From Verrucomicrobiia bacterium (GTDB taxonomy: Bacteria; Verrucomicrobiota; Verrucomicrobiia; Limisphaerales; CAIMTB01): DNA of 64,000 nt. This document shows positions 12,800 through 47,046 of this stretch, one piece after another (the stretch's first letter is position 1; every line of letters starts with the position of its first letter). A program made the position numbers and the translations under genes. The DNA is taken from positions 3,283 through 67,282 of the forward strand of contig JAHCBA010000028.1 of the NCBI GenBank assembly GCA_019634625.1, given 5' to 3'. The notes beneath the pieces are model-generated. The model was not told the origin of the DNA and did no database searches. It saw only the letters and a program-made list of their open reading frames with translations.

Positions 12800-13392
12800 C
12801 CGCCTCCCGGACACCCACCGATGAGGTCGAGATCCGTCGGGCCGGACCGGACGACTTCGCAATCGTCGCAGAACTGGCTCGAACGACCTGGCGCGCCCAT
12901 TTCCCCGGGATCATCACTCCGGCCCAGATCGAGTACATGCTCGATCGGCGCTACACGCCGGAAGCCCTCGACCGTGCTGTTCGGGACGAGGAACTCCTGT
13001 TCGAAGTGCTGAGGCGCGAGGGCCTTCCCTGCGCGTTTGCCGCCCACGCCGCCACCGAGGAGCCCGACGCCTGGAAACTGCATCAGCTCTATGTGCTCCC
13101 GGACTGGCAGCGCCACGGTCTCGGCGGAAGGCTCATGGCGCACGTCGAGCATTGGGCCCTCGCCCACGGCCGGCGCCGGCTCCTCCTCACCGTCAATCGC
13201 CGCAATCTCCCCGCCATCCTCGCCTACCAGCGCCGGGGCTTTCACATCCGCGAGGAGGCCGTGTTCGACATCGGCAACGGGTTCGTCATGGACGACTTCA
13301 TCATGGAGAAGCCCTTGGTCATGACCCCGCCAGGGGGCGCAGACCCTCGGTGCATGGACCGGGCAGGCGACGCGTCGAGTGCGAAGGGCTGA
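12796..13392 (+). CDS. GNAT family N-acetyltransferase
   Basis: ATG 12796 overlaps the upstream stop (ATGA). The acetyl-CoA motif LYVLPDWQRHGLGGRLMAHVEHWA is followed by RRLLLTVNRRNLPAILAYQRRGF. This is the tail of ORF 12103..13392. Confidence 0.85.
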   Translation: MTASRTPTDEVEIRRAGPDDFAIVAELARTTWRAHFPGIITPAQIEYMLDRRYTPEALDRAVRDEELLFEVLRREGLPCAFAAHAATEEPDAWKLHQLYVLPDWQRHGLGGRLMAHVEHWALAHGRRRLLLTVNRRNLPAILAYQRRGFHIREEAVFDIGNGFVMDDFIMEKPLVMTPPGGADPRCMDRAGDASSAKG

Positions 13393-13449
13393 ACTCGGCC
13401 CTCCGATTGCACCCCCCCGCTTCACCCTTCGGAGGGACGAGCTCCGCGA
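13391..13449 (+). repeat. Solo fragment of the MITE core (unit-unit junction type)
   Basis: gaactcggccctccgattgcacccccccgcttcacccttcggagggacgagctccgcga closely matches the internal junction of copy A (…ctcggccctccgattccaccaccacgcttcacccttcggagggacgagctccgcga…, 19726-19780). It begins at the GNAT stop codon. Confidence 0.7.
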
Positions 13450-16505: not shown

Positions 16506-16566
16506 GAAGTGAACGGCCCCGAAGCTGCCGCCCCCCCACCCCCCTGCCAATCCCAATTTGCAATGA

Positions 16567-16610
16567 AATGGCCTGAAACTCCGTGCATATGCACGGAGTT
16601 TCAGGCCATT
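16567..16610. repeat. Perfect 44-bp palindrome (palindromic element family, copy 1)
   Basis: aatggcctgaaactccgtgcat|atgcacggagtttcaggccatt has 22-nt arms with no mismatch. It is related to the 46-bp palindrome at 40490-40535. Confidence 0.9.
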
Positions 16611-17403: not shown

Positions 17404-17476
17404 CCCGCATGGTGGGGACAGCTCCGTGCCGGTTTCCAAGCGCCAATCCGGCCTTTCCTGTCCACCGCTCCACTCC

Positions 17477-17567
17477 GGAGGGACGAGTTCCACGAGTCCT
17501 CATCCCATCGCACCCCTTCCCTGCAGCCTCGTGCAACCCGGCCCTCCGATGCCACCCCTCCACCACG
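17477..17567 (+). repeat. Diverged solo copy of the MITE core unit
   Basis: ggagggacgagttccacgagtcctcatccc...cctcgtgcaacccggccctccgatgccacccctccaccacg aligns at roughly 70% (by eye) with core unit 1 of copy A (19661-19757). No terminal inverted repeats are present. Confidence 0.55.
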
Positions 17568-18648: not shown

Positions 18649-19646
18649 GCCTCCTCGACGCCCGCCACCTTTCCGTCCGCTTCCCCCTGCGCCGCGGGCT
18701 GTGGCGCCGGCCGGTCGGGTGGGTTCACGCCGTCAACGACGTCAGCTTCGCCATCGACGACGGGGAAACGGTCGGACTGGTCGGGGAAAGCGGATGCGGC
18801 AAGTCCACGCTCGCCCGCGCCGTCGCCCGGCTGCTTCCCGTCTCCGGAGGTTCCATCCATTTCGAAGGCGGGGACATCACCCGCCTCACCGGCCGCGCCC
18901 TGCGGGAACACCGCCGCCACCTTCAGATGATCTTCCAGGATCCCTACGGATCCCTGAATCCCCGCCTCTCCATCGAGGCCATCGTCGGTGAGGCCCTCGA
19001 CATCCATGGTCTCGCCCGCCATCCCAGGGAACGCCGGTCCCGGATCGAACGTCTCCTCGCCGACGTCGGACTCGATGCCACTCATGCCCGGCGTTACCCG
19101 CATGAACTCAGCGGCGGCCAACGCCAGCGCGTCGGCATCGCGCGCTCCCTGGCCGTGGAACCCCGCCTGCTCGTCTGTGACGAACCGGTGAGCGCCCTCG
19201 ACGTCTCGATCCAGGCCCAGATCGTCAACCTCCTGCAGGACCTCCAGCAGCAACGCCGCCTCGCCTACCTCTTCATCGCCCATGACCTCGCAGTGGTCGA
19301 ACACATCAGCCGGCGCATCCTCGTGATGTACCTCGGCCGCGTCGTCGAGACCGCTCCCGCCCGCGCCCTGTGCGCCCATCCCCTCCATCCCTACACCCAG
19401 GCCCTGCTCTCCGCCGTTCCCGTGGTCGATCCCGACCGCAAACGGCGCCGCATCCTCCTGAACGGCGACCTTCCCTCCCCCATCCACCCCCCCTCCGGCT
19501 GCCCGTTCCATCCCCGCTGCCCGCTCGCTGAAGACCGTTGCCGCACCGAGTTGCCCGCCCTCCGCGAGCATCGCCCGGGACATCTCGCCGCCTGCCACCT
19601 CCTCCCGACTGCCCCAGAACCCCTTGCATCCCGGAGTTGTGGGTGA
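18645..19646 (+). CDS. Oligopeptide/dipeptide ABC transporter ATP-binding protein (OppF/DppF type)
   Basis: ATG 18645 overlaps the OppD-like stop (ATGA). [36 protein letters not shown] and [12 protein letters not shown]...CPFHPRCP. The last 7 codons plus the TGA (19623-19646) lie inside MITE copy A. This is the tail of ORF 17409..19646. Confidence 0.9.
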
Positions 19647-19879
19647 GGAGGCAACGAATCGGAGGGACGAGCTCCGCGAGTCCTCAACTCAATGCTCCAC
19701 ACCGCTGCGGCCTCCCAGAGCTCGGCCCTCCGATTCCACCACCACGCTTCACCCTTCGGAGGGACGAGCTCCGCGAGTCCTCAATCCAACGCTCCACACC
19801 GCTGCGGCCTCGTGGAACTCGGCCCTCCGAAACGACGCTTCGCGAAATTCGCACCTCTCCCCACAACTCCGGGATGCAC
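19624..19879 (+). mobile_element. MITE-like element, copy A (256 bp, with internal ~97-bp tandem duplication of the core)
   Basis: Termini are ttgcatcccggagttgtggg ... cccacaactccgggatgcac. The core ggagggacgagctccgcgagtcc...ctcggccctccga is present twice (19661-19757 and 19758-~19850). Confidence 0.8.
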
Positions 19880-19949
19880 CGGGTGAAACCCGCCCGTCAC
19901 ACCGGCGCTTGACCCCCGCCCCCCGTGGTTCCGACCATGCGCCCAGCGC

Positions 19950-23921: not shown

Positions 23922-24332
23922 TCAGCGTCTCGGGAACAGGTGGTTGGCAATGATGCCAGCAAGTCCGGCAACCGCGGTTCCGGCAATCAATGCGAGCAGG
24001 ACCGCATCGGAAAGGAGGAAACGTAACTCGAACTCCAGACCCCCTGCCGAGAGCATTCGCCCCTCGCCAAGTGCACCGTTCAGGATCAGCACGACGTAGA
24101 GGGCGATCACCCACCATTTCGCAAGTCGGAAGATCTTGTCGGCATACACCCTGCGAAGCTCGATCAGCTCATTGAATTCTGTCAGTTGAGCGGCCCGTTC
24201 ATCCAAACTCAATCGCTCTTTCAGGGCCTCCTCTTCTCTCGGGCCAAACCGGCTTGCAAGGGCCTGATCGGGATCAGGCTCGTGAATTTCCCGCAGCAGT
24301 CGTTTCGGATCGGTGCCGCTTTCCTTTGGCAT
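23922..24332 (-). CDS. Hypothetical 136-aa protein, charged N-terminal half plus two C-terminal TM helices (candidate toxin partner of the Panacea gene)
   Basis: The ATG at 24332 is 3 nt after the upstream gene's stop (TGA-ccc-ATG). The sequence is MPKESGTDPKRLLREIHEPDPDQ...KIFRLAKWWVIALYVVLILNGAL...AVLLALIAGTAVAGLAGIIANHLFPRR. It lies in a visibly lower-GC segment. I recognise no family. Confidence 0.5.
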   Translation of the reverse strand: MPKESGTDPKRLLREIHEPDPDQALASRFGPREEEALKERLSLDERAAQLTEFNELIELRRVYADKIFRLAKWWVIALYVVLILNGALGEGRMLSAGGLEFELRFLLSDAVLLALIAGTAVAGLAGIIANHLFPRR

Positions 24333-24335
24333 GGG

Positions 24336-24893
24336 TCAGACATGGGCCGGCAATTTCGCCTTGAAGAAGTTTCTGATTTCTTCCTGCGGTATGTCGGTTC
24401 CAGAAATGTCCTGCCCCTTCAGTTCTACCCAGGCGTGCTTCCAAGGCGTGCCATCCTGGTGGGTCAAGGCAGACAGTTCGCCTGCGGTGAACCTGCCGTA
24501 AATGCTCCAGATCTGCTCTAACAGAGCGACGGCAAAATCGTCGTCGGGAATATCCGGTGATGATGAAACGATCCGGTACTTTCCACCCGAACCGCTGAGG
24601 ACCACACGCTCGACCGGGCGCTTGATCGGATCGCGACCGTATCGCTTGAAGGCATGATACACTTCTGGAAAGACAGGTCCGAACTTCCAGGCTTCCGGGC
24701 GTTCATTGACGAGCGGTGCGTCTGTGATCGCAAGGTGCCAACCATGTGCGAAGTACATGAGCTTGAGGAGCTTCATCAAGGTAAGCTCCTTCCCGTGCTC
24801 CTCCGCAATCCGGAGGAGTCGGTTTGCGACTGCTAGAGACGGGTGTGCCATGTCAAGTGCAACTTGCGCTTGTGATTCATATGACGTCAACAT
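24336..24893 (-). CDS. DUF4065 / Panacea-domain protein (SocA/GepA-like, PanA-type antitoxin)
   Basis: LTLMKLLKLMYFAHGWHLAITDAPLVNERPEAWKFGPVFPEVYHAFKRYG matches the T.MKLQKL.Y..Q.W.L......PLF.E..EAW..GPV....Y pattern of DUF4065. The start is taken at ATG 24893, with ATG 24851 as an alternative. The upstream 124 residues of ORF 24336..25265 are not protein-like. Confidence 0.8.
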   Translation of the reverse strand: MLTSYESQAQVALDMAHPSLAVANRLLRIAEEHGKELTLMKLLKLMYFAHGWHLAITDAPLVNERPEAWKFGPVFPEVYHAFKRYGRDPIKRPVERVVLSGSGGKYRIVSSSPDIPDDDFAVALLEQIWSIYGRFTAGELSALTHQDGTPWKHAWVELKGQDISGTDIPQEEIRNFFKAKLPAHV

Positions 24894-25263
24894 CCAACCC
24901 TGCTTGCTCTGCCGATGGGTGGAATTGCCCAACGACAAGATCTGCGCTTCGGCGCCAGGTGCCAGAATCGTTCCGCGTCTTGCTTCCGCACAAGCTCCCG
25001 GGACTGCCTCAGCAGCACCCCAGCCGAATTCCCCAACTCCGAAGCCACGCGCCCGGCGTCCTGCCACTGGGCCATGAGGTGCGAGGCGCAGGGGTGGCGA
25101 AGGCGGACATTCCTCTGCGTCGCCGCACCGTGGAGGCCGCCGCGTCCCCCGTGACGATGCCGGCATCGAGGTGGACGGCGTCCCGGGACAGCCGTCCGAT
25201 AAACTTACGGGATGACCCTGGACGGCACGGGCAAGCGGCGGGCGCAACCGCTGCCCGGGCCGC

Positions 25264-25294
25264 AAAAAACCCCGGAATCACTCGGATTTCGGGG
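25264..25294 (-). terminator. Rho-independent terminator downstream of tRNA-Ala (hairpin usable on both strands)
   Basis: On the + strand: aaaaaa-ccccggaatc-actcg-gatttcgggg-tttt. On the minus-strand transcript this gives a 10-bp stem (one mismatch) followed by U6, 18 nt after the tRNA 3' end. Confidence 0.6.
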
Positions 25295-25312
25295 TTTTCT
25301 GCCGGAGCGCGA

Positions 25313-25388
25313 TGGTGGAGCCGAGGGGACTCGAACCCCTGACCCCCACAATGCCATTGTGGTGCTCTACCAACTGAGCTACGACCCC
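25313..25388 (-). tRNA. tRNA-Ala (anticodon GGC), CCA encoded
   Basis: The reverse complement is GGGGTCG-TA-GCTC-AGTTGGTA-GAGC-A-CCACA-ATGGCAT-TGTGG-GGGTC-AGGGG-TTCGAGT-CCCCT-CGGCTCC-A-CCA. This is a 76-nt cloverleaf with the G3:U70 alanine identity pair and anticodon GGC in a 7-nt loop. Confidence 0.92.
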
Positions 25389-25571
25389 ATGCGCTCGGCC
25401 GGGGAAAACGCTAGGGGGTCCGCACCCTTCCTGTCAAAGCGTATCCTGTGCCTGCCGTTCCCTCGATTCGTGGTGCGCCCAGGGCGTGGAGCCGATGTTC
25501 GCACCCTCCCGCCGGGAAGCTCTCCCCCCGCGTTGACAGGCTGGGCACCTCAACCCTTTACTCGCCCGACC

Positions 25572-25979
25572 ATGCGTCGCACCCTCGTCGTGTCCGCCCT
25601 GATTCTGGCGCTCGGACCCGGCTGCCGATCCCCCGATCGTTCCCCGGATGCCCGCCCCATTCCCGCCGGCACCAAGGGCGGAGGTTTGGCCACACCCGCC
25701 TTCCCTTCGTCCGCAGGCCGCTCCGACACAGGACCCCTGGCCCCTGTGCTCATGCCTCCCAGTGGTCGCGTCCACGCCGTCCGCGCCGATCTCCGGTTCG
25801 TCGTTCTCGACTACACGCTGGGAGGACTCCCCGCCGAAGGTGCCATCCTCAGTGTCTATCGAAACGACCAGAAGGTCGGCGAACTACGCCTCTCGGGCCC
25901 CCCGGAACGCAGCGGATTTGTCACGGCCGACATCCTCGAAGGGTTCATTCAGGTGGACGATGAGGTTCGGATGCAATGA
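25572..25979 (+). CDS. Hypothetical lipoprotein
   Basis: MRRTLVVSALILALGPGC has a lipobox. The C-terminal half (RVHAVRADLRFVVLDYTLGGLPAEGAILSVYRNDQKVGELRL...) looks like a small beta domain. No family is recognised. Confidence 0.5.
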   Translation: MRRTLVVSALILALGPGCRSPDRSPDARPIPAGTKGGGLATPAFPSSAGRSDTGPLAPVLMPPSGRVHAVRADLRFVVLDYTLGGLPAEGAILSVYRNDQKVGELRLSGPPERSGFVTADILEGFIQVDDEVRMQ

Positions 25980-26074
25980 ACCCAGGTCCCCCGGAAGGGC
26001 TCGCTGCCTGGCTCGCTGCCCCGGGCCTGCCGCCCGCCACCGCCCCCAGGCATACCACGACCGCCCGCCAACCC

Positions 26075-29810: not shown

Positions 29811-29881
29811 AGAACGTTCGCGAAGCTAGGTAGCCGGTCAGAAGAGTGTCAAACTTTTTGGCCGTCCAGTCCGGCCCCGCG

Positions 29882-30050
29882 GTGCATCCCGGAGTTGTGG
29901 GAGTGGAGGCGGCGAATCGGAGGGACGAGCTCCGCGAGTCCTCCACCGTCCTCCACCCAACGCTCCACACCGTTGCGGCCTCGTGGAACTCGGCCCTCCG
30001 AAGCGACGCTTCGCGTTGTTCGCGCCTCAACCCACAACTCCGGGATGTAC
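29882..30050 (+). mobile_element. MITE-like element, copy B (169 bp)
   Basis: gtgcatcccggagttgtggg ... cccacaactccgggatgtac. It has a single core with a 10-nt insertion (caccgtcctc) relative to copies C and D. Flanking 11-mers tccggccccgc / gccggtcccgc match 9/11. Confidence 0.8.
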
Positions 30051-30298
30051 GGCCGGTCCCGCGATGGCTGATCCGCCTCGGAAACAACCGGCGACTTCCA
30101 GGCAACGAAGGCGCTTCCAGACCCGTTACGAATTCGCTGTCCCCCCGGTTGGCCCTGCCCGGTGTCCCGCCTTCAGCCGGCCATCCCCATCCCCCAGCAG
30201 GCTCTTAAGACGGCAGGCCCTGCCCGAGTGCCCCCTCGCCAAACCCGGCCGACCGAGCCGGGGACGAGGGGGCCGTGAAGCCCGTCGCCCGCTTCCCC

Positions 30299-30848: not shown

Positions 30849-31877
30849 TCAACCTCCCCCGTCCTCATCCCGCTTCCCCGCCTCCCCCCGCGCCCGCGGA
30901 TGCGCCGCATCGTACGACCGCCGCAACCGCTCCGTGGTGACATGCGTGTACACCTGCGTCGTCGCCAACTGCGCGTGGCCCAGCATCTCCTGCACCGACC
31001 TCAAATCCGCCCCCGCATCCAGCAGGTGCGTCGCGAAACTGTGGCGCAGCTTGTGCGGGGTCAGACCCGGATCCAGCCCCGCCGCCAGCAAGTGGCCCTT
31101 CAACCGATGCTGCAACGTCCGCGCCGGCACCGCCCGTCCATCGCCCCGCCCGCGCTGAAACATCGGCTCCCGTCCCTCCGGAACCCGCCCCATCCGCCCC
31201 CAGTAGGCCTCCACCGCCCGCACCGCATGGCCCCCGACCGGCACCACCCGCTCCTTCTTCCCCTTGCCCCGCACCCGCAGCAATCCCTCACGAACATCCA
31301 GATCCTCCATCCGCAACCCGCACAACTCCCCGATCCGCAGCCCGCAGGAGTAGATCACTTCAATGATCGCCGTGTCCCGTGCCGGCACCGTGTCGTCCAC
31401 CGGACGCCCCACCCCGCCCCCTTCCTCCCTCCCGCCTTCAACCCGGCCCGGAGCCTCCAGCAACGCCCGCATCTGGTCCACCGACAGGAACCGCACCAAT
31501 CGCTTCGGCGCCCGCGGCAACGCAAGATCCTTGAGCGGCACCGTCGCCACCCGGCCTCGCCGCACCAGGTGCCGGTAGAACGTCCGCAAGGCCGCGAACC
31601 GCAACCGCACCGCCGCGGCACTCAATCCCTGCCGCCCCAAATGGCGCAGATAGAACCGGAACTCCTCCCTCGGGAGCGTCGCCCAGTCCGGCTCCGCCCC
31701 GCGCATCCCCCGGTACCACCCCCGGAATTCCCGCAACGCCTGCCCGTAGTTCCGCAGGGTGTATTCCGAAGCCGCCCGCTCCCCGGCCAACGCCTCGAGA
31801 AACTCCGCCACCCGCAGATCCTCCCCGCCATCCCCCGACGTCCCCCCGGCCGGGCTGGCTGAACTCCCCGCGTTCAT
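30849..31877 (-). CDS. Tyrosine site-specific recombinase, XerC/XerD family
   Basis: ATG 31877 overlaps the upstream GT4 stop (ATGA). N-terminal SAM-like domain (TLRNYGQALREF...LRTFYRHL). Catalytic residues are in RDTAIIEVIYSCGLRIGEL, HKLRHSFATHLL and LGHAQLATTQVYTHV. This is the tail of ORF 30849..32309. Confidence 0.85.
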   Translation of the reverse strand: MNAGSSASPAGGTSGDGGEDLRVAEFLEALAGERAASEYTLRNYGQALREFRGWYRGMRGAEPDWATLPREEFRFYLRHLGRQGLSAAAVRLRFAALRTFYRHLVRRGRVATVPLKDLALPRAPKRLVRFLSVDQMRALLEAPGRVEGGREEGGGVGRPVDDTVPARDTAIIEVIYSCGLRIGELCGLRMEDLDVREGLLRVRGKGKKERVVPVGGHAVRAVEAYWGRMGRVPEGREPMFQRGRGDGRAVPARTLQHRLKGHLLAAGLDPGLTPHKLRHSFATHLLDAGADLRSVQEMLGHAQLATTQVYTHVTTERLRRSYDAAHPRARGEAGKRDEDGGG

Positions 31878-33139
31878 CCCCCTCCCGTCTCCATCGCCAC
31901 CCGGTACGCCCGCAGCAGCTCCTCCACCGACCGCTCCCAGTTGAGTTCCCTCCGCACCCGCTCCCGCCCAAGGGCCCCCATCCGTTCCCGTGCCTCCGGA
32001 TCGTCCAGCAAGGCGAGGATGGCATCTCCCAGCCCCTCGGCCGACAACCCCTCCACGTACCGGGCCGATTCCCCGGCGGAGTAACGTCCTTCCGTCACGT
32101 CGAACATCACCTGGGGCTTCCCAAACGCCATGTACTCGAGCGTCTTGTTCATCGTGCAATGGTCGTTGTACGGATTCGGCGGATCGCAGGCGACTCCCAG
32201 ATCGATCGTCTGCAACGCCGCAAACAACTCCGCATTGCTCACCCGCCCCGGCAGATCCACGTACTCCCCCAACCCCCACGCCTCCCGCTCCTTCACCAAT
32301 CGCTCCCACTCCGGTCCCGTCCCCATCAGCAGGAATTGCACGTCCCGGCGACCCCGCTCCCGGACGATGTGCCGCGCCGCCTCGATGAGATGAATCACCC
32401 CGTCCGCGTTCCCCATCACCCCGACATAACCCACCAGGTATCGCCTGCCTTTCCGCAACCCGTCATCCGGTGACACCTCCCCGGTCGCGATCTTCGGCGC
32501 GGTCCGCACCACAAACACCTCCCACGGCAGCTTTCGCCCCCGCTCCAGGGCCACCTCCCGCACCGACCGGTTGGTGGCCAGCACCACGTCCGCACACGCA
32601 TAGGTCAACCGCTCCGCCACCCGCACCGCCCAGTAGAACGGCCCGCGCCGTCCGAACTTCGCCTCGAAGAACTCCGGCCACACGTCATGCACGTCGTACA
32701 CCACCCGCACCCCCGCCAGCCACCGGTACGGCAGCGCCACCAGAAACAGCAGGTCCGGCGGATTGCACAAATGCAGGATTCGGAACCGGTGCCGCCGCCA
32801 CACCTTCCAAGCCAGCCACATCTCGCCCGCCAACGCCGACGCATACTCCCGGAAAAACCCCCACCATCCCCCGGCCTCCTCGCTGATCCAGTGCCGGTAA
32901 ATGTGAATCCCCTCCAGACATTCATACGAGGCCGTGTACCCCCGCATCTTCGGACAAATCACCGCCACCTCGTACCCCGCGTCCCGCAACGCGCACGACT
33001 CCTGCCAAACCCGCCGGTCCAGCGGCACCGGCAGATTCTCGACCAGGATCAGCACCGCCGGTCGCCGTTGCTGTGTTGCCTTGGCATTCACCGGCCCGAT
33101 TGACGCCGATGCCGCCCCCGGAACCAAGCCGGGATGCAC
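31874..33139 (-). CDS. Glycosyltransferase family 4
   Basis: AVLILVENLPVPLDRRVWQE, GYVGVMGNADGV, and the C-terminal E-x7-E-like region NKTLEYMAFGKPQV. The start is uncertain: GTG 33139 is the longest option and GTG 33091 is an alternative. Confidence 0.85.
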   Translation of the reverse strand: MHPGLVPGAASASIGPVNAKATQQRRPAVLILVENLPVPLDRRVWQESCALRDAGYEVAVICPKMRGYTASYECLEGIHIYRHWISEEAGGWWGFFREYASALAGEMWLAWKVWRRHRFRILHLCNPPDLLFLVALPYRWLAGVRVVYDVHDVWPEFFEAKFGRRGPFYWAVRVAERLTYACADVVLATNRSVREVALERGRKLPWEVFVVRTAPKIATGEVSPDDGLRKGRRYLVGYVGVMGNADGVIHLIEAARHIVRERGRRDVQFLLMGTGPEWERLVKEREAWGLGEYVDLPGRVSNAELFAALQTIDLGVACDPPNPYNDHCTMNKTLEYMAFGKPQVMFDVTEGRYSAGESARYVEGLSAEGLGDAILALLDDPEARERMGALGRERVRRELNWERSVEELLRAYRVAMETGGG

Positions 33140-34459: not shown

Positions 34460-34602
34460 CGTCCAGCCACCCTACCAGTCCAGGCTCCCGGGTGGACAGC
34501 CCACACAGGAGGGTTCCAAGGCCCGAAGGCCCCAAAGCCACGCCCCCCCAACCTTCGCGCTCCGCCTCAGTCCATGATCCCGATGACCGCCGCTCCCGCC
34601 GC

Positions 34603-34763
34603 AGTGCATCCCGGAGTTGTCGGTAGAGGTGCGAACTCCGCCAAGCGGCGCTTCGGAGGGCCGAGTTCCACGAGGCCGCAACGGTGTGGAGCGTTGGGTT
34701 GTGGACTCGCAGAGCTCGTCCCTCCGGTTCGCTGGCTCGTTACCGACAACTTGGGGATGCACT
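34603..34763 (-). mobile_element. MITE-like element, copy C (161 bp) with perfect 11-bp flanking direct repeat
   Basis: agtgcatcccggagttgtcggta ... taccgacaacttggggatgcact (terminal inverted repeats match 21/23). It is flanked by gctcccgccgc at 34592-34602 and again at 34764-34774. The core is in reverse orientation relative to copies A and B. Confidence 0.85.
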
Positions 34764-35065
34764 GCTCCCGCCGCCACCCGGCACTCGGCCGAACTGACCG
34801 GCGACAAGCTCATCCGCCGCAACCTGATGGAGCGCTCCGGCCGGAATTCAGCTGGAGGGCAGGAAGCGCAGAGTCAACAAGAATATGTCAGGTTTGCTAT
34901 TGGACTGCGGTCAACAATAGCGGGTCTGACTTATTATTATGTCAACTGTATGTCTCCTGCCCTTTGTTGGATGGCCGGTCAATAACACTGCGCCTGGCTG
35001 TATAATTCATCGGATCCGCGTTTTCAGTTGTACCCGAACACCCCTCCCGCGAAAGCATTGCACCC

Positions 35066-39062: not shown

Positions 39063-40460
<1,398 letters not shown>

Positions 40461-40489: not shown

Positions 40490-40535
40490 AAATGGCCGTA
40501 AACTTCGTGCATATGCACGAAGTTTACGGCCATTT
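40490..40535. repeat. Perfect 46-bp palindrome (palindromic element family, copy 2)
   Basis: aaatggccgtaaacttcgtgcat|atgcacgaagtttacggccattt. It has the same architecture and centre (cgtgcatatgcacg) as 16567-16610, and the arm differences are mirrored on both arms. Confidence 0.9.
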
Positions 40536-40615: not shown

Positions 40616-41743
40616 ATGATGGCCCACACGATTCGGTCTCCTCGCGCGGACAGGATGACGCAACAATGCGTCAATCCACCGAAAGCCCTCCGCCAGACCA
40701 CCCCGTACGGTGGCGGTGTCATGTCGCTGTCTGCACCCGCTCCCTCCGCGCTCCGGCACCTTCCCTCATCACCGTGCCACGAAGACCCGGACCCGGCCTC
40801 ACTGGCCGCCTGGACCGACGCCGTTGCCCCTGAATGCCGGAACCTGGATCCCGATGGATCCATTCGAGTGGCCCTCCATGCCGGGCCCTCCGCCTGGTTC
40901 GACCTCCTCGCCGCCCTGGGAGACCTCACGTTTGTCACCCATGTTTCAGGCGCCACGCTGGGCTGGTGCGGCGACGCACCGCGCTTCGACCATACCGACT
41001 GGCCGGTCCTGCCGGCGTCCCGCACCTGGCCCTATGCCCCGAACCTCGCCGAGTTCGCACGCCTGTGGGCGCTCCGTGAAATCGACGCCACCGGAGTCAG
41101 ACACCTCCTCGCCGTCCAGAACACGCCCGGCGCCGTATTTCATCGGATCATCGTCCCGCCCGGCCCGGGCAGCGACCGCCTCCTGGCCTTCATCGAACGT
41201 CACCAGTTGCCCCCGGATCGAACGCGTCCGTGGTTCCCGCCAAACCATGCCCGTGCCGCAGAACGTCACGCCTGTGTCCATCAGCGCATCCCCTGGCTCC
41301 AATCCCGCTGGGCTGCCCGCTCGCCCCGCATCCGCCGCCTGTCCCTCGTCCAGACTCTCGACCTCCTCGCAGCCGCGGTTTCCCACGCCCAACCGCTGCG
41401 CACCATGCTCTACAGCGAACCGCTGATCTGCGGGACGGCCTGGATCCCCGAACGGATCGTCGCCGAACCGCGCCCCGCTTCCCCCCTCCCGCCGTCTCCG
41501 CACGCCAGCCGCAAACTGCCCTGGCGCCTCCGCCTCTTTGGCGGTGCCTCCGGACTCGAACTTCTGCCCCACCTCATCGGCTCCGCCTGGCTCTGGATGG
41601 ACCAGTGCGCCTGCTGCCAACGCTCCCGCTGGGCTGTCGAGATCGGCGGCATCGATGACCGCCTGATCCTTGCCCTGCTCGCCACCCATGACACCACCGA
41701 ACCCGCCTGGCGCAGATTCCTCCGCACCACGCTGGACGGCTGA
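40616..41743 (+). CDS. Hypothetical protein with weak two-repeat HemS/ChuS-like (hemin-degrading factor) resemblance
   Basis: Two halves show similar patterns: FDLLAALGDLTFVTHVSGATLGWCG...LAEFARLWALREIDATGVRHLLAVQNTPGAVFHRII and LDLLAAAVSHAQPLRTMLYSEPLICGTAW...LIGSAWLWMD...RWAVEIGGIDDRLILALLA. These recall ChuS (ILAALESVGETKCICRNEYAVHEQVG...; ...SLELFAHDGTQIAQLYG). The comparison is from memory only and the start is uncertain. Confidence 0.4.
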   Translation: MMAHTIRSPRADRMTQQCVNPPKALRQTTPYGGGVMSLSAPAPSALRHLPSSPCHEDPDPASLAAWTDAVAPECRNLDPDGSIRVALHAGPSAWFDLLAALGDLTFVTHVSGATLGWCGDAPRFDHTDWPVLPASRTWPYAPNLAEFARLWALREIDATGVRHLLAVQNTPGAVFHRIIVPPGPGSDRLLAFIERHQLPPDRTRPWFPPNHARAAERHACVHQRIPWLQSRWAARSPRIRRLSLVQTLDLLAAAVSHAQPLRTMLYSEPLICGTAWIPERIVAEPRPASPLPPSPHASRKLPWRLRLFGGASGLELLPHLIGSAWLWMDQCACCQRSRWAVEIGGIDDRLILALLATHDTTEPAWRRFLRTTLDG

Positions 41744-45219: not shown

Positions 45220-46584
45220 TCAAGCCCTCGGGTACCGCCATGGACCCCGGTAGTCCCGGCGCAGCAACCGGTTCGCCTCCCGGTCCCCAACCACCCGCTC
45301 CCGCGCGCCGTCCCACTCGATGCTCCGACCCAGCTTCAGGGCGAGCATCCCCAGCAGCGAGACGTTCGTGGAGTAATGGCACGCCTCGATGTCGCTCACC
45401 GGCCGCCCCCCGGTGCGGATGGCCTCGAGCAGATCCGCCCACAACTCCCGGATGTTCTGCTGGTCCGGCGTGTGCAACTGGGCCGGCTCCTCGATGACGG
45501 GCTTGCGGCTGTCCGACGGATAGAACTTCCACCCGCCAATCCACCCCATGTGGAACGTCCCTTCCGTCCCGTAGAAATAGCAGCCGACGTTCTCCCCCTT
45601 CTCCGCGTTGTTGCCCGCAAACTGACGGTGCTCCCAGGACAGCGTGAAGGACTCGAAATCGAATACCGCAACCTGGTGATCGGGCGCGTCGCTGCTCTGT
45701 TCGGCCGCATTGTACACCGCCGGTCCCTTGATCGGCCGGCCCCCCGACGAGGCGATCCGTCGCGGCCACTTCTCCTCCAGGATCCACAACACCTGGTCCA
45801 TCCAGTGGATGCCCCAGTCCCCCAGCGTGCCATTGGCATAGTCGAGGTAATTGCGGAACCCGCGCGGATGGATCCCCCCCCGCCAGGGATTCGAGAGATC
45901 TCCCGTCGGCCCGTTGTAGTGCCGCAACGGCGCCGGTCCGCACCACAAGTCCCAATCCAGTTCCTTCGGCGGCTCGGAGTTCGCCAGCGGACGCTCCGGC
46001 CCCCCGCCATAATGCACAAACGCCCGCACCATCCCGATCTTCCCCGCCTTCCCCGATCGAAGGAACTCCCGTCCCGACACGTTGTGCGGCGACACCCGCC
46101 GGTGCGTGCCGACCTGCACCACCCGGTCGTGCCGCCGCGCCGCGTTCACCATGGCCCGCCCCTCCAGAATGGTGTGCCCGATCGGCTTCTCGACGAACAC
46201 ATGCGCCCCCGCCTCCACCGCGGCGATGGTTTGCAGCGGATGCCAGTGGTCCGGCGTCGCCACAATCACAATCTCCGGCTTCTCCCGCTCCAGCATCTCC
46301 CGGTAGTCCCGATAGGCCTTCGGATCGTCGCTCGTCTCCCGCCGCACCCGCTCCATCGTCGGATTCAGCAGCCGCGTGTCCACGTCGCACAGCCCCACCA
46401 CCCGGCAGGCCCCCGATGCCATCGCCTCGCCCAGTATGTTGTTCCCCCACCATCCCGTCCCGATCAGGGCCGTCCGGTAACGGCGGGTCGGCGAATCCGC
46501 ACCCACCAATCGCAGCGCCGGCAGGGTCGCGGCCGTCAGGGCGGTGGTTCGAAGAAAGGAGCGTCGTGTCAGTTGCATGGTCAT
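45220..46584 (-). CDS. Gfo/Idh/MocA family oxidoreductase with twin-arginine signal
   Basis: Start at ATG 46584 (MTMQLTRRSFLRTTALTAATLPAL). Rossmann IGTGWWGNNILGEA, VATPDHWH, and EKPIGHT with catalytic Lys. The N-terminal 98 residues of ORF 45220..46878 are read through MITE copy D. Confidence 0.9.
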   Translation of the reverse strand: MTMQLTRRSFLRTTALTAATLPALRLVGADSPTRRYRTALIGTGWWGNNILGEAMASGACRVVGLCDVDTRLLNPTMERVRRETSDDPKAYRDYREMLEREKPEIVIVATPDHWHPLQTIAAVEAGAHVFVEKPIGHTILEGRAMVNAARRHDRVVQVGTHRRVSPHNVSGREFLRSGKAGKIGMVRAFVHYGGGPERPLANSEPPKELDWDLWCGPAPLRHYNGPTGDLSNPWRGGIHPRGFRNYLDYANGTLGDWGIHWMDQVLWILEEKWPRRIASSGGRPIKGPAVYNAAEQSSDAPDHQVAVFDFESFTLSWEHRQFAGNNAEKGENVGCYFYGTEGTFHMGWIGGWKFYPSDSRKPVIEEPAQLHTPDQQNIRELWADLLEAIRTGGRPVSDIEACHYSTNVSLLGMLALKLGRSIEWDGARERVVGDREANRLLRRDYRGPWRYPRA

Positions 46585-46689
46585 CCGGGGTCCCGGTCCA
46601 CGATCGTCGCGGACCCGCTGTGGAAGGCCGCAGACTGAACTCCCGCACCCGCCCCTGGCAAGCCGGCGAAATCCCCCGCCCGTTGCCGC

Positions 46690-46850
46690 AGTGCATCCCG
46701 GAGTTGTCGGTAGAGGTGCGAACTTCGCGAAGCGTCGCTTCGGAGGGCCGAGTTCCACGAGGCCGCAACGGTGTGGAGCGTTGGGTTGAGGACTCGCGGA
46801 ACTCGTCCCTCCGAGTCGCTGGCTCGGTACCGACAACTTGGGGATGCACC
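46690..46850 (-). mobile_element. MITE-like element, copy D (161 bp)
   Basis: gtgcatcccggagttgtcggta ... taccgacaacttggggatgcac is nearly identical to copy C. Flanking 11-mers cccgttgccgc (46679-46689) and gccgttgccgc (46851-46861) match 10/11. Confidence 0.85.
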
Positions 46851-47046
46851 GCCGTTGCCGCCAACCAAGCAATGGCAAGGGAATCCCAAGAAACGGCCAG
46901 ATCGCCCCTCCGTCCGCAGGTATTCACAAGGTCATTCGCTACTGGCCCTCCAAAGAGTCTCCTCTTTCCAGCGCCAGACCAAGGAGAGCCGCCATCCCTT
47001 TCGCCATCCCCGTTCGCATCCCCAGCACCGCCAGCATCCAGGCCCC

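Follow-up and report, generated by a model that had tools for sequence, protein, structure and literature searches.

Among the small mobile repeats of bacteria, Correia/NEMIS (Neisseria), ERIC and RUP are MITEs of 100-160 bp that form long hairpins, lie adjacent to genes and are sometimes co-transcribed with them; their hosts are proteobacterial or firmicute, their RNA effects have been characterised, and the duplications associated with Correia and RUP are short and of the TA type. MITEAba12 of Acinetobacter is 113 bp long, carries 16-bp terminal inverted repeats (TIRs) and a 9-bp target-site duplication (TSD), and is mobilised by ISAba12 (PMC6382973). Verrucomicrobiota are common in soil, water and gut, yet little of their mobile DNA has been catalogued. 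A full-text search of the literature found no description of the TIR reported here or of MITEs in Verrucomicrobia, and a 2024 survey of prokaryotic MITEs leaves the phylum unmentioned in its main text.

Here we analyse a repeat family found in a 64,000-nucleotide stretch of verrucomicrobial DNA (the window), to which an earlier note, made from the letters alone, had drawn attention. We argue that the copy at 34602-34764 is very probably a MITE, that is, a non-autonomous DNA transposon remnant without a transposase nearby. The note had called the family undescribed, and this stands uncontradicted, with neither an Rfam match nor a relevant description in the literature.

Results

The copy at 34602-34764 (plus strand) is complete, measures 163 bp and has the ends CA-GTGCAT...ATGCAC-TG. 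Its left TIR, CAGTGCATCCCGGAGTTGTCGGTA (34602-34625, plus strand), also ends elements at MAG and metagenome loci, and its right TIR, TACCGACAACTTGGGGATGCACTG (34741-34764, plus strand), fails to match the left arm at two neighbouring positions. When AGTGCATCCCGGAGTTGTCGGTA (34603-34625) is re-read against TACCGACAACTTGGGGATGCACT (34741-34763), the two form an inverted repeat with 21/23 identical positions, just as the earlier note had described its 23-nt TIRs; the TIR of this copy is 23-25 nt long, or 24 nt with the outer C/G counted in. Both mismatches had been taken for G·U pairs, which holds for one of them, the other being a G opposite a G. The inner arm ggaactcgtccctcc, for which a match of 14/15 had been given, is that of the copy at 46689, and the 34602 copy reads agagctcgtccctcc with a match of 12/15.

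The 17-mer end motif GTGCATCCCGGAGTTGT was found 10 times in the window at ≤3 mismatches, against 0.2 matches expected (~50-fold); none of 100 shuffled windows reached this number, and eight of the 10 matches pair up to delimit four elements. Between the arms of the 34602 copy lies a 75-bp hairpin core module (34653-34727, plus strand), which has six copies in the window and is specific to this genome. The element as a whole folds into a single long hairpin (-106.4 kcal/mol, z = -9.8), which is predicted for either strand (-106.4 and -97.2 kcal/mol, z about -10); the 23-nt TIR arm alone forms no stem-loop.

The second full copy, 92% identical to the first, occupies 46689-46851 (plus strand) and is flanked by a perfect (9/9) duplication, CCGTTGCCG, at 46680-46688 and 46852-46860. 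The third (29880-30052, minus strand) has the opposite orientation, two arms of the CCCGGAGTTGTGGG type and an 8/9 duplication, CCGGCCCCG / CCGGTCCCG, at 29871-29879 and 30053-30061, and in the fourth (19622-19881, minus strand) the core is tandemly doubled with a 97-bp period and the flanking repeat is degenerate (4/9). All four align end to end once they are oriented by their interiors; the four full copies counted earlier, in two orientations (19622 and 29880 versus 34602 and 46689), are all accounted for. The solo core fragments mentioned alongside them were found as well: one core module without TIRs at 17475-17549 (minus strand, 75% identity to the reference core), and a core-junction hairpin at 13391-13449 (minus strand), in which the 3' half of one core is joined through a linker to the 5' half of another that follows it, and which is 93% identical to the junction within the 19622 copy. 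The GC-rich hairpin module of the interior is thus local to this genome and can stand by itself or in tandem array.

The 34602 copy is bracketed by CTCCCGCCG, present at 34593-34601 and, with 9/9 identity, at 34765-34773. The earlier note had proposed that flank duplications be scored systematically, and we did so over 22 complete elements, comprising the four of the window and 18 from MAGs and metagenomes; L039 and L050 are one locus and were counted once, with only L039 among the 22. The conserved ends of these elements read C-N-GTGCAT...ATGCAC-N-G, the middle base being variable, and the outer C on the left and outer G on the right are kept in 20/22. In 14 of the 22, drawn from the window and from other loci, the nine bases outside the ends are identical at 8-9 of nine positions, while 462 mismatched pairs of left and right flanks, serving as a control, reached a maximum of 7/9 with a mode of 2/9. 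Over the nine positions, identity in the 14 duplicated elements amounts to 12-14 of 14 at each position (86-100%); at the first position beyond the nine, on the two sides, it is 8/14 and 6/14 (43-57%), and at the second 3/14 and 6/14. The duplicated 9-mers are all unlike each other (for example CTCCCGCCG, CCGTTGCCG, GACTGTTTC, TGACTGATC and TCCGATGGG). Sharply bounded 9-bp repeats of this kind are what transposition through staggered cuts of 9 bp leaves behind, and the reconstructed empty sites would read ...CCGCCG-CTCCCGCCG-CCACCCGG... for the 34602 copy and ...CCCCGC-CCGTTGCCG-CCAACCA... for the 46689 copy.

A duplication of 11 bp had originally been claimed. The repeat gctcccgccgc is indeed present, 11/11, at 34592-34602 and 34764-34774, and the 11-mer flank matches given for the 46689 copy (10/11) and the 29880 copy (9/11) are correct, the 19622 copy having 5/11. 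The duplication is real and varies from copy to copy, but its true length is 9 bp; the 11/11 match at the 34602 copy arises because the 9-bp duplication is extended by the element's own C/G and by chance identity of the two adjoining flank bases. The suggestion of an IS with long TSDs, which had been built on the 11 bp, falls with it; 9 bp is a common duplication length among DDE transposases.

A recognisable duplication is missing in 8/22 elements, including the 19622 copy (4/9). One of those without it, L038, abuts another element, in L053 and L061 the repeat is shifted by one base, and at L039/L050 recombination between copies may have removed it. The variable second base matches at the two ends in 9/14 elements; we attach no meaning to this, as it is explained by descent within family 1 together with element orientation.

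Species-representative genomes and metagenomes were searched with the exact 19-mer TGCATCCCGGAGTTGTSGG, which matched 14 loci in genomes and 47 in metagenomes; because the query was exact, the conservation of the TIR across genomes is partly given by construction. Nine of the 14 genome matches look like chance, as they lie in non-Verrucomicrobiota genomes or within coding sequence. The genuine elements are those of L003, L005, L006 and L011, from MAGs labelled Verrucomicrobia/Verrucomicrobiota, and of L009, whose label, Akkermansia muciniphila, may be a binning error. The TIR-bounded elements from metagenomes come from soil, sediment and lake, and genes beside them encode the PVC-typical domains PSCyt1/2, PSD1 and N_methyl.

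Complete elements elsewhere are 125-195 bp long and fall into at least five interior families, which share nothing but the ~23-nt TIR. These are a 155-bp family from soil and rhizosphere (L022, L033, L034, L036, L039, L041, L044, L056, L059 and others), a 136-bp family (L027 and L053), and the families of L047 (166 bp), L011 (154 bp) and L005 (~195 bp); to them comes the window's own 159-bp family, and the 75-bp core of the window has no copy in about 70 related loci. As one and the same TIR surrounds unrelated interiors, the window's family is a genome-specific branch of a TIR superfamily, and it is composite, with MITE ends placed around a genome-specific hairpin module. The 34602 copy, which had been presented as an archetype, is thus a member of one subfamily, specific to this genome, within a larger Verrucomicrobiota group that has only the ~23-nt TIR in common. 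A slight asymmetry of the arms (left CCCGGAGTTGT, right ACAACTT[C/G]GGG) recurs across interior families, and descent from a parent element with slightly unlike ends is its simplest explanation. Related elements have themselves been struck by other mobile elements.

In three window copies, the inside of the TIRs is where short-read (Logan) contigs from the same organism end; one of these contigs, L015, extends exactly between the 34602 and 29880 copies, and another, L076, starts within the 46689 copy. Similarly, 13 of the 47 metagenome matches are no more than about 160 nt away from the end of their contig. Many-copy repeats typically break short-read assemblies, and the contig breaks inside the TIRs therefore indicate many copies. 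The gene order UDPGdh-glycosyltransferase-Xer-RRM is retained in L070, a relative with 84% nucleotide identity across 4.1 kb, and on both sides of this syntenic block neither the element nor any TIR-like sequence is present, the flanking intergenic DNA being unalignable and the upstream neighbour a different one. That the block occurs there without an element beside it would show the window copies to be no ancient fixtures. No clean empty site was found among close homologues of three neighbouring proteins, these relatives being diverged or non-syntenic; those of the GFO and DppF neighbours are non-syntenic or too distant.

The window has a GC content of 67% and genes typical of Verrucomicrobiota, such as those for a DUF7133-HEAT-cytochrome c protein, a Tat-signal GFO/IDH/MocA oxidoreductase and a CheB-CheR-PAS protein. 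The 34602 copy sits between the divergent genes for UDP-glucose dehydrogenase (start 34459, minus strand) and the DUF7133 protein (start about 35066), and the 46689 copy between the divergent GFO/IDH/MocA (start 46584, minus strand) and CheB-CheR-PAS (start 47047, plus strand) genes; an RRM-protein gene has the 29880 copy on its downstream side. Between the end of the 19622 copy and the signal-peptide start of a SurA-like gene there are 69 nt, and this copy overlaps the last eight codons and the stop codon of an annotated dppF-like ORF. This ORF extends 25 nt into the TIR (CCC CTT GCA TCC CGG AGT TGT GGG TGA) and takes from it its stop codon, 19644-19646; the NCBI protein, of 333 aa, contains the TIR-derived tail, and DppF homologues are alike up to ...ACHL and then continue into short variable tails. 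The statement that all copies are intergenic is consequently not strictly true.

That window copies are found 70-300 nt ahead of start codons invites the thought that the element is a host-functional structure, whether as RNA hairpin, regulatory palindrome or protein-binding site, whose ends are kept across Verrucomicrobiota by selection and whose mobility is secondary or extinct. As the main explanation we consider this unlikely to a high degree, though the element may have such a role secondarily. The genes beside the copies are unrelated to each other, the elements are missing from the relative at 84% identity, and interiors are unrelated between families, so that any function would have to reside in the ends. 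Stable as the hairpin is on either strand, it is followed by no T-run of the terminator type, the Rfam search of the whole window at the gathering threshold returned only a tRNA elsewhere and nothing over the element, and at E≤1 the element itself yielded only sub-threshold miRNA-precursor hairpins, that is, generic hairpin noise. The arm asymmetry leaves a G·U pair on one strand only and does so across interior families, which might speak for a host function; a parent with unlike left and right ends explains it equally well, however, and the conservation across genomes was itself selected for by the exact-match search.

Scanned against Pfam and NCBIfam, some 55 window ORFs showed no transposase domain, in agreement with the earlier note, to which no transposase was visible. 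The 113 ORFs that flank related elements and 10 ORFs adjoining or overlapping element ends, when compared with Pfam, revealed no parent transposase, and no autonomous element with the same ends was encountered across the flanks of about 60-70 related loci. Partner TIRs were looked for at an IS-like distance of 1-6 kb from every unpaired end, and the three candidate ISs so obtained (L002, L009 and L021) were set aside, as they enclose ordinary genes, namely those for GcvP and a DUF7133 protein and an ECF-sigma fragment. An IS110-family gene in L016 was likewise rejected as the parent; it inserted independently next to a GTAG-REP-like hairpin, and L023 represents the corresponding empty site. 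A scan of viral contigs gave only chance matches in coding sequence, and a plasmid BLAST with the element and the family-1 end gave nothing meaningful. The full-length IS with the same ends that the earlier note had suggested looking for was thus found neither in the window nor in related loci, viral or plasmid collections.

Alternatively, the copies could be REPIN/BIME-like palindromes, their arms being inverted REP-type units that a RAYT/TIRYT tyrosine (HUH) transposase, or processes of the host, would have spread. HUH-mediated insertion (IS200/IS605 family) leaves no target duplication. The interior core is indeed REP/BIME-like in that it is found singly, in junction hairpins and as tandem copies, the GTAG-REP-like hairpin adjoins a related TIR in L016 and L023, and the verrucomicrobium Opitutus terrae is rich in GTAG-tagged REPs (PMC3733652). 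Nonetheless, REPs and REPINs insert without a target-site duplication, whereas a sharply bounded one of 9 bp is present here in 14/22 elements, the 23-nt arm is no stem-loop by itself, and no Y1/HUH transposase domain was detected among the scanned window ORFs; this explanation we hold to be very improbable, and we reject it because of the duplication. The same observation disposes of integron-like or Xer-type recombination sites, a hardly credible proposal in which attC-like palindromes would be used by a tyrosine recombinase such as the Xer-like one encoded at 30849-31877, the sole recombinase in the window: inverted conserved ends around a variable interior give a superficial attC resemblance, and the recombinase gene does lie between two copies, but site-specific recombination leaves no variable 9-bp duplication, the ends as read from the sequence misfit the core motifs RYYYAAC / GTTRRRY, the neighbours are ordinary chromosomal ones, and the Xer-like gene is probably a housekeeping XerC/D, since relatives without the element have it too, within an unchanged gene order.

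Discussion

The reading of the 34602 element as a MITE brings these observations together. It is short and non-coding, the window copies measuring 163-260 bp, inside the span of about 50-800 bp usual for MITEs, and having no capacity to encode a transposase; its TIRs, at 21/23, exceed the 10-15 bp usual as a minimum for MITEs and recur in 22 complete elements; its target-site duplication has a fixed length of 9 bp and a sequence that varies from copy to copy; and its copies are dispersed, with four full ones in 64 kb. We infer a DDE-type transposase whose gene would lie in another part of the genome, and with it a transposase family and any current activity; the enzyme would bind both ~24-bp TIRs, with the consensus C-N-GTGCATCCCGGAGTTGTCGGT, and cut out or copy the element and insert it at 9-bp staggered cuts, the repair of which would generate the 9-bp direct repeats around the copies. 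The interior would be cargo that is dispensable for movement; in other Verrucomicrobiota the sequence between these ends is unrelated.

Each copy could fold as a hairpin of ~160 nt, as RNA or as single-stranded DNA, and the copies, being placed ahead of start codons or at the ends of genes, may have incidental effects on the expression of neighbouring genes. The 19622 copy gives an ABC-transporter gene its stop codon; otherwise, this is ordinary selfish DNA. The TIR consensus and the 9-bp duplication nevertheless provide a signature with which repeats that fragment short-read assemblies and MAGs can be annotated or masked, the TIR offers a handle toward the responsible transposase, and element insertions can be used as strain markers.

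More speculatively, and with the odds clearly against it, the shared ends C-N-GTGCATCCCGGAGTTGTCGGT and the 9-bp duplication might define a MITE superfamily that extends over all Verrucomicrobiota and is served by a transposase lineage that is either uncatalogued or a domesticated chromosomal one; its members would repeatedly acquire hairpin modules and spread them beside genes as structured-RNA or regulatory cassettes.

By duplication length, the closest described analogue is MITEAba12. Like it, the present element is small, non-coding and bounded by TIRs that are slightly unlike each other, makes a 9-bp duplication, is dispersed between genes and is mobilised, here presumably, in trans. In contrast, the TIRs are unrelated (GGCTTTGTTGCACAAA versus CNGTGCATCCCGGAGTTGTCGGT), the host phylum is another one, and the interior is a long perfect-hairpin module unlike that of MITEAba12, which furthermore has a known parent IS, while no parent of our element was found in the loci searched.

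As regards insertion sequences, the IS10/IS50-type members of the IS4 family share with our element the 9-bp duplication, the terminal C (position 1 in 20/22 elements) and the G at position 3. The fit of the 9 bp and the terminal C is a lead toward this group. The IS10 outside end (CTGATGAATCCCC..., confirmed in 2735 plasmids) is loosely like CNGTGCATCCCGG here, a weak match of 12/19 positions with one gap that could be due to chance. The differences are that position 2 is variable in our element, whereas ends of the IS10/IS50 type begin 5'-CT(G), and that no IS4-type transposase was found in our scans. The DDE transposase of the IS4 family carries the YREK signature. Duplications of 8-10 bp are also made by IS1, the IS903 group, ISAs1, IS256 and ISLre2, which are further candidates for the parent family.

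The TIRs of Correia/NEMIS, ERIC and RUP differ from those of the present element. With the REP/REPIN/BIME sequences (PMC3733652) it shares GC-rich hairpins, a mosaic and tandem core, and the abundance of such sequences in a verrucomicrobial genome, that of O. terrae; REPs, however, are linked to RAYT and lack TIRs and duplications, whereas the element described here has TIRs of 24 bp and duplications of 9 bp. Taken as a whole, its architecture and inferred mechanism are those of a standard bacterial MITE, and what our analysis adds to the earlier note are the C-N-G end, the 9-bp length, the occurrence of one TIR around several unrelated interiors in Verrucomicrobiota, and the composite nature of the family.

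TIR-like sequences in the window and beyond

The terminal inverted repeat (TIR) that bounds the MITE also reaches into coding sequence, in that the last 8 codons and the TGA stop of a dppF-like ABC ATPase ORF consist of TIR sequence (19620-19646). The corresponding NCBI protein is 333 aa long, and homologues of this ATPase share a conserved ...ACHL that is followed by short, variable tails at the very end.

Two further matches to the TIR motif (14/17 each), at 33123-33139 and 45441-45457, both on the minus strand, are probably chance occurrences or very old remnants; one of them falls on the GTG start of a glycosyltransferase ORF and the other lies within a GFO gene. Outside the window, a contig from a MAG labelled Akkermansia muciniphila (L009:2770-6349), a label that looks doubtful, carries a solo TIR and, ~500 nt downstream of it, a DUF7133-HEAT-cytochrome c gene, the same kind of gene as the one that follows the MITE copy at 34602. 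Since the DUF7133-HEAT-cytochrome c family is highly paralogous, this shared neighborhood is probably a coincidence.

Other features of the window

Two perfect palindromes of 44-46 nt (AATGGCCTGAAACTCCGTGCAT|ATGCACGGAGTTTCAGGCCATT) occur at 16566-16610 and 40490-40535, each preceded by CCCCCCTGCCA, and the differences in the second copy are mirrored on both arms. Start codons lie ~60-80 nt downstream of them: one palindrome precedes a minus-strand gene of the Asp/Arg-hydroxylase-like kind, and the other precedes an unknown plus-strand ORF at 40616. The pair looks like an operator or a separate hairpin family; its half-site bears a loose resemblance to the TIR of the MITE (xTGCAx...GGAGTT), which may be due to chance.

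A tandem hexamer array, (CACGAG)n, at 39230-39361 encodes a His/Glu-rich tract inside a LarC-like nickel-pincer cofactor gene. The GC content falls to 62% at 24000-26000. A SocA/Panacea antitoxin-like ORF (24336-25265) and a tRNA gene (25316-25388), both on the minus strand, lie in this region, which may be a small acquired island. The GC skew is uniformly and strongly negative over the whole window (-0.08 to -0.39), increasingly so toward the 3' end.

Other mobile elements at related loci

At one locus carrying a related TIR, an IS110-family transposase gene with DEDD_Tnp_IS110 and Transposase_20 domains (L016:669-1958) has inserted ~200 nt inside the TIR, after ...GAAGGTAG, and is adjoined by a GTAG-REP-like hairpin (CCGTGGGCTTCAGCCCACGG). 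A second locus, L023, has the same flanks without the IS110-family gene and therefore represents the empty site for this IS.

Elements of family 1, one of the interior families enclosed by related TIRs, are broken at the loop of a GCGGCC-TTCAG-GCCGC hairpin in L060, L017, L051 and L054. In L060 the interrupting element is another MITE, with ends GAGCCTGTGTGAAAAA and a duplicated TTCAG; the element interrupting L017, L051 and L054 differs from it and starts with (T/G)CGAATGGCACTTAG. The loop of this hairpin appears to act as a hot spot for insertions.
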